Shown in pieces: positions 8,335 through 15,008 of a DNA stretch of 64,000 nucleotides. The notes beneath the pieces are model-generated. The model did not search any database. It was given only the letters and a program-made list of their open reading frames with translations, and was not told the DNA's origin. The stretch spans positions 78,306 through 142,305 of the forward strand of contig DATY01000029.1 of assembly GCA_002504905.1 (NCBI GenBank). Direction: 5' to 3'. The stretch comes from Euryarchaeota archaeon UBA605 (GTDB taxonomy: Archaea > Thermoplasmatota > Poseidoniia > Poseidoniales > Thalassarchaeaceae). The translations under genes and the position numbers were made by a program. Within the stretch, counting starts at the first letter, position 1; each line of letters starts with the position of its first letter.

Positions 8335-8553
8335 TTATCTAATGTTTACCTTCAAAGCATAAGCGCCAGGATCATCTATATTCAGCCTTTTAGCAACTTC
8401 AGATCTTTTAGGATTAAGAATTATCACATAACCCTGCCAGTCAGTGGTTACAGGAGCATTAGGGCACCATTTACAATTAACTGGATCTTTTTTATTTTCT
8501 GGTTCGGGGAGAATGCGATTACATTCCCCGCAGGCAAATGGTTGCTTAGCCAT
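8335..8553 (-). CDS. spt4: transcription elongation factor Spt4 / RNA polymerase subunit E''
   Basis: MAKQPFACGECNRIL...CKWCPN zinc ribbon plus W.GYVIILNP; start trimmed to the internal ATG directly after the E' stop. Confidence 0.8.
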   Translation of the reverse strand: MAKQPFACGECNRILPEPENKKDPVNCKWCPNAPVTTDWQGYVIILNPKRSEVAKRLNIDDPGAYALKVNIR

Positions 8554-8554
8554 C

Positions 8555-9103
8555 TTAATCCTGCTCCTGTATCCACGAATATGCACCAAGTCCATCCATT
8601 TTACAATTCAAACCAATTTTACTAGCTCTTGGATCGTTCTGATTAATCGCTTTGGAAACTACACGAGAGCGTATGTAAGAACCCTCTTCTAGATATTTTC
8701 CACTGGATGAACCTTCAATTCTCTTGACTCCTAAATTAACATTTATTGGCTCATCAAGAATCTGTGATTTATGCAATAAAGCCTCCATAGGGCCTATTCT
8801 TACGAATGCACCATATTCTGAAATCTCAGATGCATATCCATCTACAACTTCATTATTTTCCATGTTAAAAAGAAGAGCCTTGAACTTAACTCGTTGATAT
8901 ATCGCACCATCTCCATGGATAATTTTTCCGCGACCCAAAGGTTCATGATCGAATGTTAAAACTGTATAATTTTCATCTGGATCGAAGCGACCTTCAAATG
9001 CATCATTTGCCAACTCATCGATATGGTCAACTAGGTTACGCCCTGCACGAATATATTCTGCAGGTATTCTTATTGTATCTTCGCGGGTAACTATGCTGTA
9101 CAT
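8555..9103 (-). CDS. rpoE: DNA-directed RNA polymerase subunit E' (Rpb7 homolog, S1 domain)
   Basis: N-terminal Rpb7-like fold followed by an S1-like region; GGAGG SD 7 nt upstream of the ATG; directly precedes spt4. Confidence 0.8.
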   Translation of the reverse strand: MYSIVTREDTIRIPAEYIRAGRNLVDHIDELANDAFEGRFDPDENYTVLTFDHEPLGRGKIIHGDGAIYQRVKFKALLFNMENNEVVDGYASEISEYGAFVRIGPMEALLHKSQILDEPINVNLGVKRIEGSSSGKYLEEGSYIRSRVVSKAINQNDPRASKIGLNCKMDGLGAYSWIQEQD

Positions 9104-9120
9104 GTTTTTTCCTCCATTTA

Positions 9121-9225
9121 ACGGACTGCTCCGAGGTTTGTCGGAGGAAGGCAGAAAGACCCCCCGTCCCTCATCGGCAAAGCCTCCAGAGGAGAAGTCC
9201 GTTGAGTCGCCGACTTACCACCCCT
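9121..9225. ncRNA. candidate structured RNA (unclassified), ~62% GC island in a ~36% GC genome
   Basis: Long imperfect hairpin: GGACU/AGUCC, CUCC/GGAG, GAGG/CCUC outer helix enclosing UUUGUCGG.../...UCGGCAAA. Followed by smaller hairpins (CAGACC-GUA-GGUCUG; GUUCAA..UUGAAC). Strand undetermined. Confidence 0.35.
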
Positions 9226-9359
9226 GTATAAGCGCAACGGATGAAAAATGACTTCGGAAAATCAGATTTACCCCACAGACCGTAGGTCTGGATGATAGTT
9301 TAGTGCGAATGTTCAAGTGGGTATTGAACCCCATTTAGACCCTGATGCGAGGGTTCACT

Positions 9360-12300
9360 ATGTCAAATCAATTAAACAAAGTTACTATTTGTTTGGTAAT
9401 GACATCTCTATTAGTGCTAATGCCTCATTCAGGATTATTATCAAATTATGGAGACTATAGTGATGAAATTAAAGAAAAAAGAATTAACTCATCTTCTTCT
9501 GATTCTGATTCGTTATGGGTAGATGGTGGGCAACCTTGGCCCCAGCCAGGTAGAACTTCTGGTAGAGAATCCACTCCGCCCAATCATGGACCTGATGGAG
9601 GAGCAGGATTGGGTGCTCCAGATAATATTACAGAATTACAGTCGATAGTAGACCCTGTAATCAACTGGCAATATAGCAATTATATTTATTCTACAGATGC
9701 GTTTGCTACTCCAATTGCTGACCTATCTGAATCAATTGTATCCGACGAAGATTCTGATGAAAGATGTGGAGGAGACTCATTATTCACTGTAATCATACAA
9801 ACAGAAGATGTTGGAGGAAGCTTGCATAGTTTCCTTAGAATAATAGAAGGAGAAGATGCAGATCTTGCCTGGGAAGTTGACCTAGGAGAAACTGATGAAA
9901 TTAAGGCATCTCCAGTAGTTGTAGATTTAGACTATGATGGGAAGCAAGAAATTCTTGTTTCCTTTGATTTAAGTGGAACATTCTATGTCAAAGGTTATTC
10001 TCCTGAATTAGTTTGTTCAGTAACCGGTTGGTCACCAGGAGGTAGTCATGTCACTGAATTATTGTGGACATACTCAGATTCTACGTTAATGATTGGAAGT
10101 ACTGATGGCCCTTACGTCAGTAATGCGTATGGCGGACACAAGCCTACTGCCCAGCCTCTACTTGCAGATCTAGACTTGGATGGAACAGCGGAATTAGTAC
10201 TTTCATTAATTGAGAAAAATTCTGAAGAACCAGTAATCTTAGCATTAGATATCACCGGGACTTCTGCAACCTCCATATGGGAGAAAACATTGGATAAAGG
10301 AACACATCCATCAGATCCAACATTTGTACAAACTGATGAAAATACTGCTTTCGTGATTTTAACTTCTGTTCAGAGTTCTACAAGTGCAATGTGGCTGTGG
10401 AAACTTGATGCAGCGGATGGTGACTCAAATTGGGATGGGAAATCATTGGAAAATCTAAATAATTTTGATTCCAATGTACCTCACATTAGGCTTCCAGGAC
10501 CTGTGATTGCAAATTTAGATTCTGATGACGCTATGGAGATGGTGGTTACAATACCATCTGATTTTGACGGTAGTAGTGCAGCATATGGTGCTGAATATTA
10601 CGGTATTGAAATTAGCGATGGTACAAAAATTTGGGATTTTGAGGCCTCAAACGGTTATGCGGATTCTGCACCTATAGTTATTGATACTGATGAAGACGGA
10701 GATCATGACAGAGTTTGTTGGATTACTTGGACTACTAACAGTTGGAACACGAATAGAGATGGTTTCGCAGGATGTCATGATGACACTGACGGAACCAATC
10801 CTCAAGAAGCATGGAGTAAAGAAATTCTTGAACCACAAGGAGCGCCGAATGACGGAATTGCAGTTTCTTCACCTATTTGGATGAATATAGATGACTCTGA
10901 CGAACCAGAATTAATTGTGCCATATGGTAGAGAATTAAGGGCTTATGATGGAGAATTAGGAACTATGGCTGGAATAAACTCTTTCTGGAGTGAACCAATT
11001 GCAATTAACCATAGACTTTGGGCATCACCATCATTAGCAGATATTGATGGAGATGCAACTTTAGATTTAATTCTTGGAGATACCGTCATTTCAAATCAAG
11101 TAGCTGATATAAGGCCTCAATTGGATGGAAGAAGCATAGAGTTCAGCCCAGTTGCTCCAGACCCAGGAGAAATGGTAACTATCACAGTATCTTTTGAAAA
11201 TTCAGGTACCGCAGAAACTGATGAGGATTCAGATGTTATCTTATATGCTGATAATCAGATCATAGCTCAAGAAAGATTTGGGAATATGCAACCTGTTGAT
11301 CCAACAGGTTCAGGTTCTCTATCTACATTTACTGTAGAATGGTCAGGAAATCTAGGTGAACATGAATTCAAACTAGTTTTAGACCCTTACAGGAACATTA
11401 CACAATCTAGATACGATAATGATATTCATATTACGACATTGAGCATAGTTAATCCATATAATGCTAGTTTTGAGATCCCCACTGAACCAACCGTTGTCAC
11501 ACCCGGTGAAAACTCACTATTTACTCCAAATATTCGTTCTACAGGTAGGTTAGCAGGAATATGGAGCCTATCCGTAGACGACACAAATCTACCGGAAGGA
11601 TGGACGTGGAGCGATGAAACTACTGATGGCTTAGATTCAATTCAGATAGGAGTTGGGCAAATATGGAGTCCGAATCTGAGAATATTTGCACCGAGTGATG
11701 CATTAGGTTCTGACTCGGGTTACTTGACCCTAACATTAACTTTAGATGACGATAACAATGTTTCAATCTCTGCACTAGCAGCGGTGGAAGCAAATAGAAC
11801 TAGAGGTCTCTCAATTAGAGGGCCCGATGGGACTGCAAATACTCATGGATATGGTCTAACTGGAGAATACGCAGAGGCATGGATACTAATTCATAATTTA
11901 GGAAATGCATTGGAAAATCAAATTATTATGTCTTGGGATACAACTTCATGGGGTAATGATCTGAAATTATATGATTTAGAAGGAAATCAAATTCCTGCTC
12001 TAACTCTAGAACCAGATGAGATAATTTATGTCACTGCAAGACTGGATGTACCTAGTAATGCAAATTTGGGAGATTCAGTTAGTACACCTCTAGAAATGTG
12101 TGTTAGCGAGAATATATGTCAAACAATCGATATCTCATTCACCGCTACTGGCGTGACCACAGATGTACATCAGAGAACCGTTCCCGGCAGGACATTGTCA
12201 TGGGATATTTCAGCAGACATGCCTGTTGGGGAGAATCAACTTGAATGGTCTATGAATGATGCAGGATTAGTGATTCCAGGATGGTCTTGGAGTACGACCG

Positions 12301-15008
12301 GCGATTTAGAAATAGTTGATGAATTACTAATTCTTACTAGATCAGGGTCATCAAGAGTCTATGGAACAATAATATTGAATTTACCTAATGATGCTCCTCC
12401 ATCATACCATACATTCATTGAACAAAGTAGTCAATCAACAGATCATATCTTACAATTCTCACTCGAAGTATTACAAATTTATCGAGCTGATTTGACAATT
12501 ACTTCTCCAATAGAACAACCATATGAAGTTGAAGTTGAGGAAGATGTTCTAGTTATGATAAAGTTAGAGAATCCAGGAAATGGATTCGATACTTTCATAT
12601 TAAGTTCAGAACTAGTTACAAACCTCAATAATGAGGAAGAATTTGAAGTAACAGTTTCATTTACTAGCAGTACAGTGTCGTTGGGTCCTGGAAGTCTTCA
12701 AACAATCCCAGTAATAGTTAGCCTACCAGAGAATACTCCGGCAAATACAGAAATCGAAATTCTGATTATCATGACATCTCAGGGAAATCAAAGTGTAGAA
12801 GATTCGGAAATTATTTCACTCTCAGCGAAACAAGACCATAGGTGGGAGATAAATGGGGAGTACCTAGGGATTAATCTCAGAAATAGCACTATAATAACAT
12901 CTCCAGGAGAGTTAGGAGAAGTGATCTTGAATGCTAAGAATATTGGAAATCTAGAAGACGATATTTCTCTTGAAACATCAATCAATATCATATATTCAGG
13001 TTCTGATGATTCACGAGGATGGAATGCTTCTGGGACGGCAATTCAAGGTGTTGGAGTTAATGAAACTGGAAATCCTTCTGTATCTTGGTCGGTGCCTAAT
13101 GGTGCTTGGAATGGAACAATAATGCAAATTACGGTAAATGCTAACGCTAGAGGAGAGATTGTAGATACAATAATCTTCGATGTAGAAGTACCTCATATCA
13201 AGGAATGGAGGGCGATTTCAAGTCAAGTTGATTTAGAAATTGATCCAGGGGGTTCATCAATTGATATCGAGATAATGCAATTGGGCAATTCGCCATCAAA
13301 TGCATATTCAAATGTATATGTGAATGGTTCAAATGACTGGATAGTTGAGACACCAGAAGAATTGCCAGTTTTATCTCCGGGAGAAAGTGCATTCATGACA
13401 TTGAATATCACACCCCCAGAAAATGCCCAACATGGTAAAACTGTTGAGCTACATATCAGACTTAGAGAAGGCAACTCGTTATCTGAAACTATAGTTCCGT
13501 TAAGAGTTGCTGTAATTCACCAATTTGATTTATCAGGTCAAGGACCATGGGTTGTTTCAGAACATGGAGGTTTTCCTCATGCAACATTACTCAATGAAGG
13601 AAATGCTCCAACTACTATTACAATTAATGTTAGAAGTTTACCATCTGGATGGGAAGTAACAGGTGAAACAACTACTGTATTAGCAGTTGGAGAACTAAAA
13701 GGACTTCCTATTGAATTGATACCAGATTCAAATTGGGATGGAAGTACGTACACAATAAAAATAGAAGCTATTGATGATTTAGGCAATGTTGATGAAATAT
13801 TACTAGATACTGTAAAACAAAATTATTCTTGGGCAATGTCCCCCATTATTACAATGATTAGTGGCGATAATACTCTGTTAAAGATTCATGGAACAGATTC
13901 TGAATCTTCTGTTATTGATGGAAGTCAAGGATTACTGAACTGGGAGGGCAGTGGTGGTTGGTTATGGTTAGCCTCTCAGTCTGTCCAAGATGGAGAAATA
14001 ACCATTGATTCAAATGAAGGATTAGTTTATTCTTCTTACATTTCTGAGGAGGTTAGCAGAGAAGGTAATTGTTTCTTATTAGGACAACAGGGCGACATTA
14101 CTGCATATTGTAGTATTTTCAATGGAACTGGAAATTTTGACTACACCTTGATGTTAATTGATGATAATGGAAAACTTCTAGACTCTTACTCAAATACATT
14201 GGAGCATAACGCTTCTCTAGAAAGATTGAATCTAACTGCTACTAATTGGAATCCAGAACCAGGAAAAAGAAGTCTGATTTTGAGGGCTCTGGACTCCAGA
14301 GGCATAGAGTTCATTAGTACAGAAAAAGAATTTGAAATCCGGAGAAGTGATTGGAATATAGGCCTAACAGGAATTGAACTGGTAGGGACTGGAAGTAATC
14401 AGCAAGTTCAAATCACAACTATTAGAGAAAATCAAAATCTTCTTACTAACGCAGATTGCTTACTTGAAGTAAGAATACCCTCACAAGGATATAATGAAAA
14501 ACATATTATGGACCCCTCGGCTGTCTATTTCTTACCTAAAATAGATCGTCCGAATAATATTCCTGATGGAGATGAATTGATAGTACAATTTAGTTGTGCA
14601 TTCCCATGGGATATTGAATCAGACTCAACAGATAATGAACAGAGAATAATTTTGACAGAAGGATCGGATGAAAATGATGGAATCGAAGATTTAGAGACAG
14701 GGATAGCAGCAGCAGCTTTGGTAATCGGAGTTTCTATAGCATTAGCTTGGTTAGTGAAAAATCATAGGGAAAGAAAAGAAATGATGGAAATGACTGAGAA
14801 AGCAATAAAACAGCATTTATCAAATAAGAAGAATACAATAAGTAACGTAGCAGAGCAGAAAGAGAAAACGGATCAAGAGGCTGTCGATATTATTGAGAAT
14901 GTGACTGAAGAAATAATGGAAACAGTCGAAAATAAAGAAGAAAAAATAGAAGATGAAGAAGAATTAGATGAATTCGAACTCAGACTGAGAAGACTGGGTA
15001 AGTTGTAA
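9360..15008 (+). CDS. giant cell-surface protein (FG-GAP beta-propeller-like repeats + CARDB/Ig-like repeats + C-terminal TM anchor)
   Basis: Signal peptide MSNQLNKVTICLVMTSLLVLMPHSG. DxDxDG motifs (ADLDLDGTAELV, ANLDSDDAMEMVV, ADIDGDATLDLILGD). CARDB-like PDPGEMVTITVSFENSGTAETD. C-terminal hydrophobic IAAAALVIGVSIALAWLV then a basic/acidic tail. Alternative start at 9345 (MRGFTM...). Confidence 0.75.
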   Translation: MSNQLNKVTICLVMTSLLVLMPHSGLLSNYGDYSDEIKEKRINSSSSDSDSLWVDGGQPWPQPGRTSGRESTPPNHGPDGGAGLGAPDNITELQSIVDPVINWQYSNYIYSTDAFATPIADLSESIVSDEDSDERCGGDSLFTVIIQTEDVGGSLHSFLRIIEGEDADLAWEVDLGETDEIKASPVVVDLDYDGKQEILVSFDLSGTFYVKGYSPELVCSVTGWSPGGSHVTELLWTYSDSTLMIGSTDGPYVSNAYGGHKPTAQPLLADLDLDGTAELVLSLIEKNSEEPVILALDITGTSATSIWEKTLDKGTHPSDPTFVQTDENTAFVILTSVQSSTSAMWLWKLDAADGDSNWDGKSLENLNNFDSNVPHIRLPGPVIANLDSDDAMEMVVTIPSDFDGSSAAYGAEYYGIEISDGTKIWDFEASNGYADSAPIVIDTDEDGDHDRVCWITWTTNSWNTNRDGFAGCHDDTDGTNPQEAWSKEILEPQGAPNDGIAVSSPIWMNIDDSDEPELIVPYGRELRAYDGELGTMAGINSFWSEPIAINHRLWASPSLADIDGDATLDLILGDTVISNQVADIRPQLDGRSIEFSPVAPDPGEMVTITVSFENSGTAETDEDSDVILYADNQIIAQERFGNMQPVDPTGSGSLSTFTVEWSGNLGEHEFKLVLDPYRNITQSRYDNDIHITTLSIVNPYNASFEIPTEPTVVTPGENSLFTPNIRSTGRLAGIWSLSVDDTNLPEGWTWSDETTDGLDSIQIGVGQIWSPNLRIFAPSDALGSDSGYLTLTLTLDDDNNVSISALAAVEANRTRGLSIRGPDGTANTHGYGLTGEYAEAWILIHNLGNALENQIIMSWDTTSWGNDLKLYDLEGNQIPALTLEPDEIIYVTARLDVPSNANLGDSVSTPLEMCVSENICQTIDISFTATGVTTDVHQRTVPGRTLSWDISADMPVGENQLEWSMNDAGLVIPGWSWSTTGDLEIVDELLILTRSGSSRVYGTIILNLPNDAPPSYHTFIEQSSQSTDHILQFSLEVLQIYRADLTITSPIEQPYEVEVEEDVLVMIKLENPGNGFDTFILSSELVTNLNNEEEFEVTVSFTSSTVSLGPGSLQTIPVIVSLPENTPANTEIEILIIMTSQGNQSVEDSEIISLSAKQDHRWEINGEYLGINLRNSTIITSPGELGEVILNAKNIGNLEDDISLETSINIIYSGSDDSRGWNASGTAIQGVGVNETGNPSVSWSVPNGAWNGTIMQITVNANARGEIVDTIIFDVEVPHIKEWRAISSQVDLEIDPGGSSIDIEIMQLGNSPSNAYSNVYVNGSNDWIVETPEELPVLSPGESAFMTLNITPPENAQHGKTVELHIRLREGNSLSETIVPLRVAVIHQFDLSGQGPWVVSEHGGFPHATLLNEGNAPTTITINVRSLPSGWEVTGETTTVLAVGELKGLPIELIPDSNWDGSTYTIKIEAIDDLGNVDEILLDTVKQNYSWAMSPIITMISGDNTLLKIHGTDSESSVIDGSQGLLNWEGSGGWLWLASQSVQDGEITIDSNEGLVYSSYISEEVSREGNCFLLGQQGDITAYCSIFNGTGNFDYTLMLIDDNGKLLDSYSNTLEHNASLERLNLTATNWNPEPGKRSLILRALDSRGIEFISTEKEFEIRRSDWNIGLTGIELVGTGSNQQVQITTIRENQNLLTNADCLLEVRIPSQGYNEKHIMDPSAVYFLPKIDRPNNIPDGDELIVQFSCAFPWDIESDSTDNEQRIILTEGSDENDGIEDLETGIAAAALVIGVSIALAWLVKNHRERKEMMEMTEKAIKQHLSNKKNTISNVAEQKEKTDQEAVDIIENVTEEIMETVENKEEKIEDEEELDEFELRLRRLGKL

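Follow-up and report, generated by a model that had tools for sequence, protein, structure and literature searches.

What is the GC-rich block that separates the rpoE′ gene from the divergent gene of a giant surface protein in this Poseidoniales genome? An earlier note on this DNA had offered two alternatives, namely a free-standing small RNA gene or a structured 5′ leader of the rpoE′-spt4-S24e-S27ae operon. Known cis-regulatory RNAs are very few in Archaea, and to our knowledge the Poseidoniales (Marine Group II) have no cultured representative. No report of a cis-regulatory RNA in this group was found in the literature, nor was a description of the element found in work on Poseidoniales non-coding RNA, on S24e, S27ae or rpoE leaders, or on ribosomal leaders. 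Here, the whole stretch of 64 kb (the window) and related loci were analysed for composition, folding, promoter and ribosome binding signals, conservation and covariation.

Composition and anatomy of the region upstream of rpoE′

The GC content is 0.61 at positions 9125-9224 versus 0.369 across the entire 64-kb window, in agreement with the value of about 62% given for the block before. The long interrupted hairpin described earlier (GGACU/AGUCC, CUCC/GGAG, GAGG/CCUC, UUUG/CAAA) was recovered as the minimum free energy (MFE) fold on both strands. For positions 9104-9203 the MFE was -40.5 kcal/mol on the minus strand (z = -2.62, with 3 of 200 shuffles folding equally well) and -36.6 kcal/mol on the plus strand (z = -2.76, 0 of 200 shuffles). 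The 241-nt interval delimited by the earlier note also folded better than shuffles on both strands, to a modest degree (z = -2.06 and -1.28). The functional strand of the hairpin is the minus strand, because a CTTATA TATA box, a GGAGG Shine-Dalgarno sequence and the ATG of rpoE′ follow in this order on it. The alignment, with 254 G-U/U-G pair cells versus 117 A-C/C-A cells, agrees with this assignment.

The putative promoter of the rpoE′ operon is marked by the TATA box CTTATA (9227-9232, minus strand), which is invariant in the alignment of Marine Group IIb (MGIIb) loci. Directly upstream of it lies the block CCGTTGyG (9233-9240, minus strand), which is called BRE-like on account of its position and is nearly invariant in MGIIb loci (alignment consensus tCCGttG.gCTTATAc). 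The distance from CTTATA to TCTCCTC was 30-33 nt (134 distinct loci), and at the corresponding position other clades have a TATA-like box rich in A/T (TTCAAATA, TTTATATT or CTTAAAT). In Archaea, transcription usually starts about 23-25 nt from the TATA box; the start is therefore expected at about position 9203, the first base of helix P1 (predicted start 9203-9205, minus strand, with the pyrimidine-purine step C9204-A9203). A scan for bacterial-type promoters and terminators, which is uninformative since the host is an archaeon, returned one promoter-like site versus 1.6 expected and no terminator.

In the MFE fold the predicted transcript begins with an 84-nt leader hairpin (9120-9203, minus strand) composed of P1, P2, a 4-nt bulge, P3, P4, a UGA bulge, P5 and an apical stem-loop. 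According to the alignment, its 5′ arm is nearly invariant (CGGACyUCUCCUCyrGAGGCnnnGCCGAUGAnGGACGGGrGG, 9160-9201, minus strand). Within this arm are the invariant UGA of the asymmetric bulge between P4 and P5 (9171-9173, minus strand), which is kept in MGIIb, MGIIa and other clades, and the 5′ strand of P4 (UUUG.CG, 9175-9181, minus strand), which pairs with CG.CAAA at 9137-9143. The Shine-Dalgarno sequence of rpoE′, as read from the sequence, is GGAGG at 9111-9115 (minus strand), 4 nt past the foot of the hairpin. Across loci the gap between hairpin end and Shine-Dalgarno sequence is 3-5 nt, and in nearly all of them 7-11 nt separate GGAG or GAGG from the start codon. The rpoE′ gene (RNA polymerase subunit E′/Rpo7) occupies 8555-9103 on the minus strand in the list of open reading frames, with its ATG at 9103, and is followed in the same operon by spt4, rps24e and rps27ae; in syntenic loci the Pfam families S1/SHS2_Rpb7-N, Spt4, Ribosomal_S24e and Ribosomal_S27 were matched. 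The leader is predicted to constitute the 5′-UTR, of about 100 nt, of the rpoE′-spt4-rps24e-rps27ae mRNA of this MGIIb archaeon.

Folding of 71 distinct MGIIb leaders one by one gave one common architecture, consisting of P1 (ACGGAC/GUCCGU), P2 (CUCC/GGAG), the 4-nt 5′ bulge UCyr between P2 and P3, P3 (GAGG/CCUC), a variable P4 followed by the asymmetric bulge containing UGA, and P5 (GGGACGG with a pyrimidine strand) followed by a variable apical stem-loop. The long hairpin was the MFE fold in every clade, MGIIa and loci of 58-68% GC included, and was kept with different helix sequences in diverged loci. In the MGIIa-type loci L124 and L135, an extra GAC-UUCG-GUC tetraloop hairpin, absent from MGIIb, precedes the long hairpin at the predicted 5′ end.

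Two further hairpins had been proposed in the remaining intergenic region. The first is CAGACC-GTA-GGTCTG (9276-9290), a perfect inverted repeat that is conserved in the stretch separating the divergent promoters and has a single copy in the window. Nearly all MGIIb loci have it at a constant distance, and its 3-nt loop is found in both orientations (tac, gta, tat, ttc); in other Poseidoniales clades its place is taken by different perfect GC-rich repeats (TGGGCCC-gta-GGGCCCA, CCGCCC-gta-GGGCGG, GTGACCCC-ctta-GGGGTCAC and TGGGTCAC-ata-GTGACCCA). Its position upstream of the two predicted promoters sets the repeat apart from the leader; it may serve either as a transcription-factor site or as a hairpin. 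The second, GUUCAA-N7-UUGAAC (9311-9329), turned out to be peculiar to the window: close relatives differ in its right arm, and its left arm alone is conserved, within a promoter-like block of the giant gene. About 25 nt after this conserved block, GCGAAYGTTCAAGTGG at 9306-9321, comes TCTGATG, likewise conserved, with ATG 9345 as the start of the giant open reading frame (9345-15008, plus strand, 1887 aa in the list of open reading frames). The giant gene is probably transcribed as a leaderless mRNA, because the BRE/TATA-like GCGAAYGTTCAAGTGG lies about 25 nt before its ATG and no Shine-Dalgarno sequence was found between GCGAAYGTTCAAGTGG and ATG 9345. A resemblance was also seen between TTCAAGTG and the MGIIa rpoE′ TATA box TTCAAATA. 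The giant surface protein has about 1850-1975 aa in loci L124-L146 and the window, with faint FG-GAP, CARDB or NPCBM_assoc matches. Throughout Poseidoniales, and in MGIIa too, its gene and the rpoE′ operon form a divergent pair; synteny this stable is unusual for a cell-surface gene beside a housekeeping operon.

Distribution and covariation of the element

When GTDB species representatives were scanned with the RpoE′ protein, 80 loci were obtained, all from Poseidoniales (Marine Group IIb, Thalassarchaeaceae), with RpoE′ identities of 77-100% and GC contents of 37-62%; the RpoE′ of the window is 100% identical to that of MAG UBA257. About 130 nt 5′ of rpoE′ were conserved in 80 of 80 MGIIb loci, in the order CCGTTGyGCTTATAC, a semi-conserved stretch of 25 nt, ACGGACyTCTCCTCyrGAGGCnnnGCCGATGAnGGACGGGAGG, a variable 3′ half, GGAGG and ATG. 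A 16-base core pattern had one match, at the same place, in 77 of the 80 genome loci. The covariance model R1 gave a single match per locus in 92 of 94 sources and one match in the 64-kb window, and its matches were always at the 5′ end of rpoE′. With a 22-base core pattern at least 119 metagenome contigs were matched, 8 of which were cut by contig ends. Among the matches listed, rpoE′, encoding MY[ST][IL]..TIR, was directly downstream in 111 of 111 assessable metagenome contigs, and ATGTAY was found within 110 nt in 110 metagenome contigs and TTGTAC in one. Diverged loci were obtained via RpoE′ homologues of 56-67% identity and include one Poseidoniaceae (MGIIa) contig and contigs of 58-68% GC; they retain the synteny, the divergent giant FG-GAP/CARDB protein included. 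Neither the rest of the 64-kb window nor about 0.74 Mb of related loci contained a further copy, and in none of the loci and metagenome contigs searched was the element found outside the rpoE′ context. The 43 matches of the 16-base pattern in viral contigs were attributed to chance, as none was a covariance-model hit (best E = 0.7).

In public gene calls the N terminus of RpoE′ is over-extended through the leader (194-301 aa vs about 182), and some calls begin at a GTG within it; the entries P0004, P0005, P0010-P0012, P0075, P0090 and P0095 and the loci L130-L137 are affected. An N-terminal extension of RpoE′ was rejected: the leader is open and in frame (99 nt) in the window, but single-base indels between close relatives break the frame. 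By the same argument, a 52-aa open reading frame on the plus strand (9093-9251) was discarded. Going by the sequence, the true RpoE′ start is the conserved ATGTAY after the Shine-Dalgarno sequence, and adding the leader to Rfam could fix the over-extended N termini in public data.

An independent small RNA gene (SRP-like, an H/ACA or C/D guide, or a novel sRNA) merely located beside rpoE′ would also be GC-rich, stable and promoter-proximal, as are RNA genes in AT-rich archaea. However, a cmscan against Rfam returned only 7 tRNAs for the whole window at the gathering score, and only three weak, unrelated matches for 8950-9500 at E ≤ 10, which bears out the earlier note in its non-assignment of the element to SRP RNA, RNase P RNA, 5S rRNA or an H/ACA guide. 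The resemblance to SRP helix 8 that had been seen in the purine stretch GGAGGAAGGCAG is empty, because this stretch is on the plus, nonfunctional strand and partly in the variable apical part; an SRP-like reading also has no covariance-model match. ARAGORN found no tRNA or tmRNA in 8500-10000. An H/ACA guide was rejected on the variable sequence 3′ of P1 (UAAAU, UUU, CACU, CGAUU and others), which contains no conserved ACA box, and on the missing Rfam match. The best C/D box score, for sR38, was 13.2 bits versus a gathering score of 50 and fell at 9228-9314, outside the hairpin, and a C/D sRNA between the inverted repeat and the giant gene was dismissed as its C-like box is not conserved among MGIIb loci. 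Moreover, no conserved T-run terminator and no second promoter before rpoE′, whose Shine-Dalgarno sequence follows 4 nt after the hairpin, were found, and the element never occurs in another context. A separate RNA gene is therefore extremely improbable. Of the two alternatives that opened this analysis only the structured 5′ leader survives, and it can be adopted with high confidence: the TATA box and BRE-like block are conserved at a fixed spacing, the hairpin lies at the predicted start, the Shine-Dalgarno sequence and start codon come next, and the element is confined to rpoE′.

The element shows covariation, which is richest in P4. The compensatory variants of P4, recognisable by eye, include UUUG/CAAA, CAG/CUG, AUGG/CCGG, AUGGCCG/CGGCCGG, GUA..CGA/UCGUAC, GUGCAC/GUGUAC, CUCGCU/GGCGAG, GGCA/UGCC and UGUC/GACA. 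Pair 32-100 of P4 shows all six standard pair types, and the base after UGA is paired and covaries (pair 42-84; G-C in 65 and A-U in 10 sequences). In an unfitted MAFFT alignment the structure derived from the window paired 79% of cells, versus 44-57% with partners slid. For the pair counts, alignments were fitted with the covariance models R1 and R2, a procedure that biases covariation counts towards the structure; in these, 84.8% and 87.0% of cells were paired, compensatory changes occurred in 14 of 28 pairs versus 8.4 ± 1.6 and 9.0 ± 1.6 in shuffles (0/500), and double-change cells numbered 102 and 122 versus 36 in shuffles (0/500). The GC-rich block, conserved at every related locus examined and carrying compensatory base changes, is far more than a chance feature.

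Conservation at the level of DNA, as a transcription-factor operator or a constrained initially transcribed region, is highly improbable given these changes. CCTC-YR-GAGG does form a 10-bp near-palindrome just downstream of the predicted start, and the region from TATA box to start is also partly conserved. However, sites separated by 40-60 nt change in a compensatory manner and G-U cells outnumber A-C cells, both of which are signatures of RNA; the conservation also extends to about +45, past a typical operator.

Candidate functions of the leader

The two arms of the hairpin differ in their constraint. A 75-sequence alignment contained 24 invariant columns in the 5′ arm and 0 in the 3′ arm, which drifts; the conservation of the 5′ arm holds across genomes of 37-62% GC. 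Tolerance of G-U, by which a G-rich arm pairs with C or U, could account for part of this asymmetry. Because the pyrimidine strand of P2, the UCyr bulge and the UGA bulge are invariant as well, the pattern suggests that the 5′ arm is read by something besides its pairing partner.

The main rival to a protein-binding operator is a passive 5′-terminal hairpin that protects the mRNA from 5′-to-3′ exonucleases, e.g. archaeal RNase J/aCPSF2-type enzymes, or keeps translation efficiency constant without a specific regulator. A stabiliser would be in keeping with a P1 that begins a few nucleotides from the predicted 5′ end, with the high stability of the hairpin in every clade (mean MFE across leaders -42.5 kcal/mol), with a free Shine-Dalgarno sequence and with a 3′ arm that needs only complementarity. 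Yet a stabiliser requires a stem and not some 40 invariant nucleotides, and the UCyr and UGA bulges in a 5′ arm that is invariant across genomes of 37-68% GC point to sequence-specific recognition. We regard a purely passive role as rather unlikely.

The bulge containing UGA might alternatively belong to a K-turn or K-loop, an attractive candidate in view of GAUGA and because the 5′ half, when folded locally, contains a tandem G-A. The bulged strand reads (G/A/U)(A/G/U/C)U-GA in all clades, the two bases before UGA varying by clade (GA, GG, UG, UA, AC). On the opposite strand, the clade of the window has GA before the 3′ strand of P4 (CC-GA-CAAA); elsewhere this position is GU, GG, UG or absent and the strand is fully paired, e.g. 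GUCC-UCGG in L125. Neither GA is conserved outside some clades. The element is not a K-turn at the family level, because the partner G-A is absent in most clades and the operon contains no L7Ae.

The conserved GAGG and the AUG or GUG that follows 9-12 nt later in the bulge could together mark a real or decoy translation start, i.e. a short upstream reading frame, a ribosome standby site or a trap. Among 82 distinct leaders the triplet ending in UG is ATG in 72, GTG in 9 and CTG in 1, and GAGG is always upstream at a Shine-Dalgarno-like spacing. Against this, the reading frames range from 4 codons to read-through into rpoE′ and lie in different frames, the peptide is not conserved past M-[RK]-D-G, and conservation is at the nucleotide level with synonymous sites included; moreover, an invariant A follows UG although a start codon would not need it, and GAGG is paired in P3. 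A translation start in the bulge is very unlikely on this evidence.

A small-molecule riboswitch or a thermosensor, the two kinds of RNA switch considered, would require two states. The invariant 5′ half would fold locally first; the 3′ half would then either complete the long hairpin, with the Shine-Dalgarno sequence free, or pair through CUUCCUCC with GGAGGAA, turning translation off. RNAalifold on the MAFFT alignment prefers this local fold; 98.9% of cells are paired in it, and the variable sites are all wobble-compatible. When the local fold is forced, CUUCCUCC pairs with the Shine-Dalgarno sequence in many leaders, and the complementarity of the two is significant in the clade of the window (z down to -4). 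On the other hand, the local fold shows no compensatory change at all, costs about 13 kcal/mol relative to the long hairpin, and loses its tandem G-A in MGIIa and other clades (GG, UG, UA, AC); being neither supported by covariation nor kept in MGIIa, the local 5′-half hairpin was rejected. Sequestration of the Shine-Dalgarno sequence is supported in some clades only and does not hold for the family as a whole (median z = -0.9, with 28% of leaders below -1.64), and for an operon that is not metabolic no ligand is apparent. A switch is accordingly considered quite unlikely.

Most likely the leader controls the expression of its operon. For a leader read as a protein-binding operator for feedback control of the operon we see even chances, the proposed logic being that of bacterial ribosomal-protein/RNA-polymerase operon leaders. 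This reading is favoured because the element is positioned by the ribosome binding site, has a single context, carries an invariant bulged arm and precedes an operon of RNA-binding proteins. As is typical of ribosomal-protein leaders, the element has a position by the ribosome binding site of such an operon (with a predicted start) and a covarying structure (in fitted alignments). Since the Shine-Dalgarno sequence is free in the MFE fold, the hairpin alone is not obviously repressive. According to the operator model, transcription from the CTTATA promoter would begin at about 9203, and the first 84 nt would fold into the long irregular hairpin with its foot 4 nt before the Shine-Dalgarno sequence. 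The near-invariant 5′ arm with its UCyr and UGA-containing bulges would offer a recognition surface for a macromolecule, most likely an RNA-binding product of the operon, i.e. S24e, S27ae or the stalk subunit E′ with its S1 domain. Binding beside the ribosome binding site would throttle the translation of rpoE′, and with tightly packed downstream genes the throttling might extend to the whole operon. More specifically, and with somewhat less than even odds, a product of the operon may feed back through the leader on the RNA polymerase stalk, Spt4 and two small-subunit ribosomal proteins; this product could be eS24, eS31/S27ae, or E′ itself sensing the nascent invariant 5′ arm.

If true, this would be the first autoregulatory RNA described for eS24, eS31/S27ae or E′. 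An operator would show how Poseidoniales balance their transcription and translation machinery and would provide an RNA-protein pair amenable to in vitro study without culturing. As a motif, the leader is a clean candidate with a single copy, a fixed context, strong covariation and an unusually invariant arm.

Comparison with known systems

Hairpins that stabilise the 5′ terminus of an mRNA are known from the leaders of E. coli ompA and B. subtilis aprE and need little sequence conservation. The leader shares with them a stable stem at or near the (here predicted) first transcribed nucleotide, and differs in that about 40 nt and two bulges are invariant.

The archaeal L7Ae K-turn is likewise a hairpin of an mRNA leader near the start and is considered to bind a ribosomal protein (PMC5539422; PMC6298567). 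In reading R-U-G-A, the bulge of the present leader is like a K-turn's bulged strand or the opening half of a box C; unlike the L7Ae element, it has no opposite-strand G-A in most clades, and L7Ae is not encoded in the operon.

In their survey of archaeal and bacterial ribosomal leaders, Eckert and Weinberg (2020; PMC7247131) proposed the candidate archaeal leaders eL15 and L4-Archaeoglobi by comparative genomics and listed no motif for S24e, S27ae, rpoE or Spt4. The present element was also recognised by comparative genomics as a covarying motif 5′ of archaeal ribosomal-protein genes; it differs in its lineage, the Poseidoniales, and in belonging to operon genes without a motif in that survey.

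Among bacterial ribosomal-protein leaders, the L10 leader governs rplJL-rpoBC, and S4 controls the alpha operon with rpoA. The host of the present leader is an archaeon, and no similarity in sequence or structure to these leaders was found, no Rfam leader family having been matched. What is shared, on a comparison from general knowledge, is a conserved structured 5′-UTR by the ribosome binding site of an operon that mixes ribosomal proteins with transcription subunits and, as proposed here, feedback by an RNA-binding product. If this proposal is correct, the leader would represent an archaeal counterpart of the bacterial coupling of ribosome and RNA polymerase operons, in an uncultured archaeal group that ranks among the most abundant of the surface ocean.
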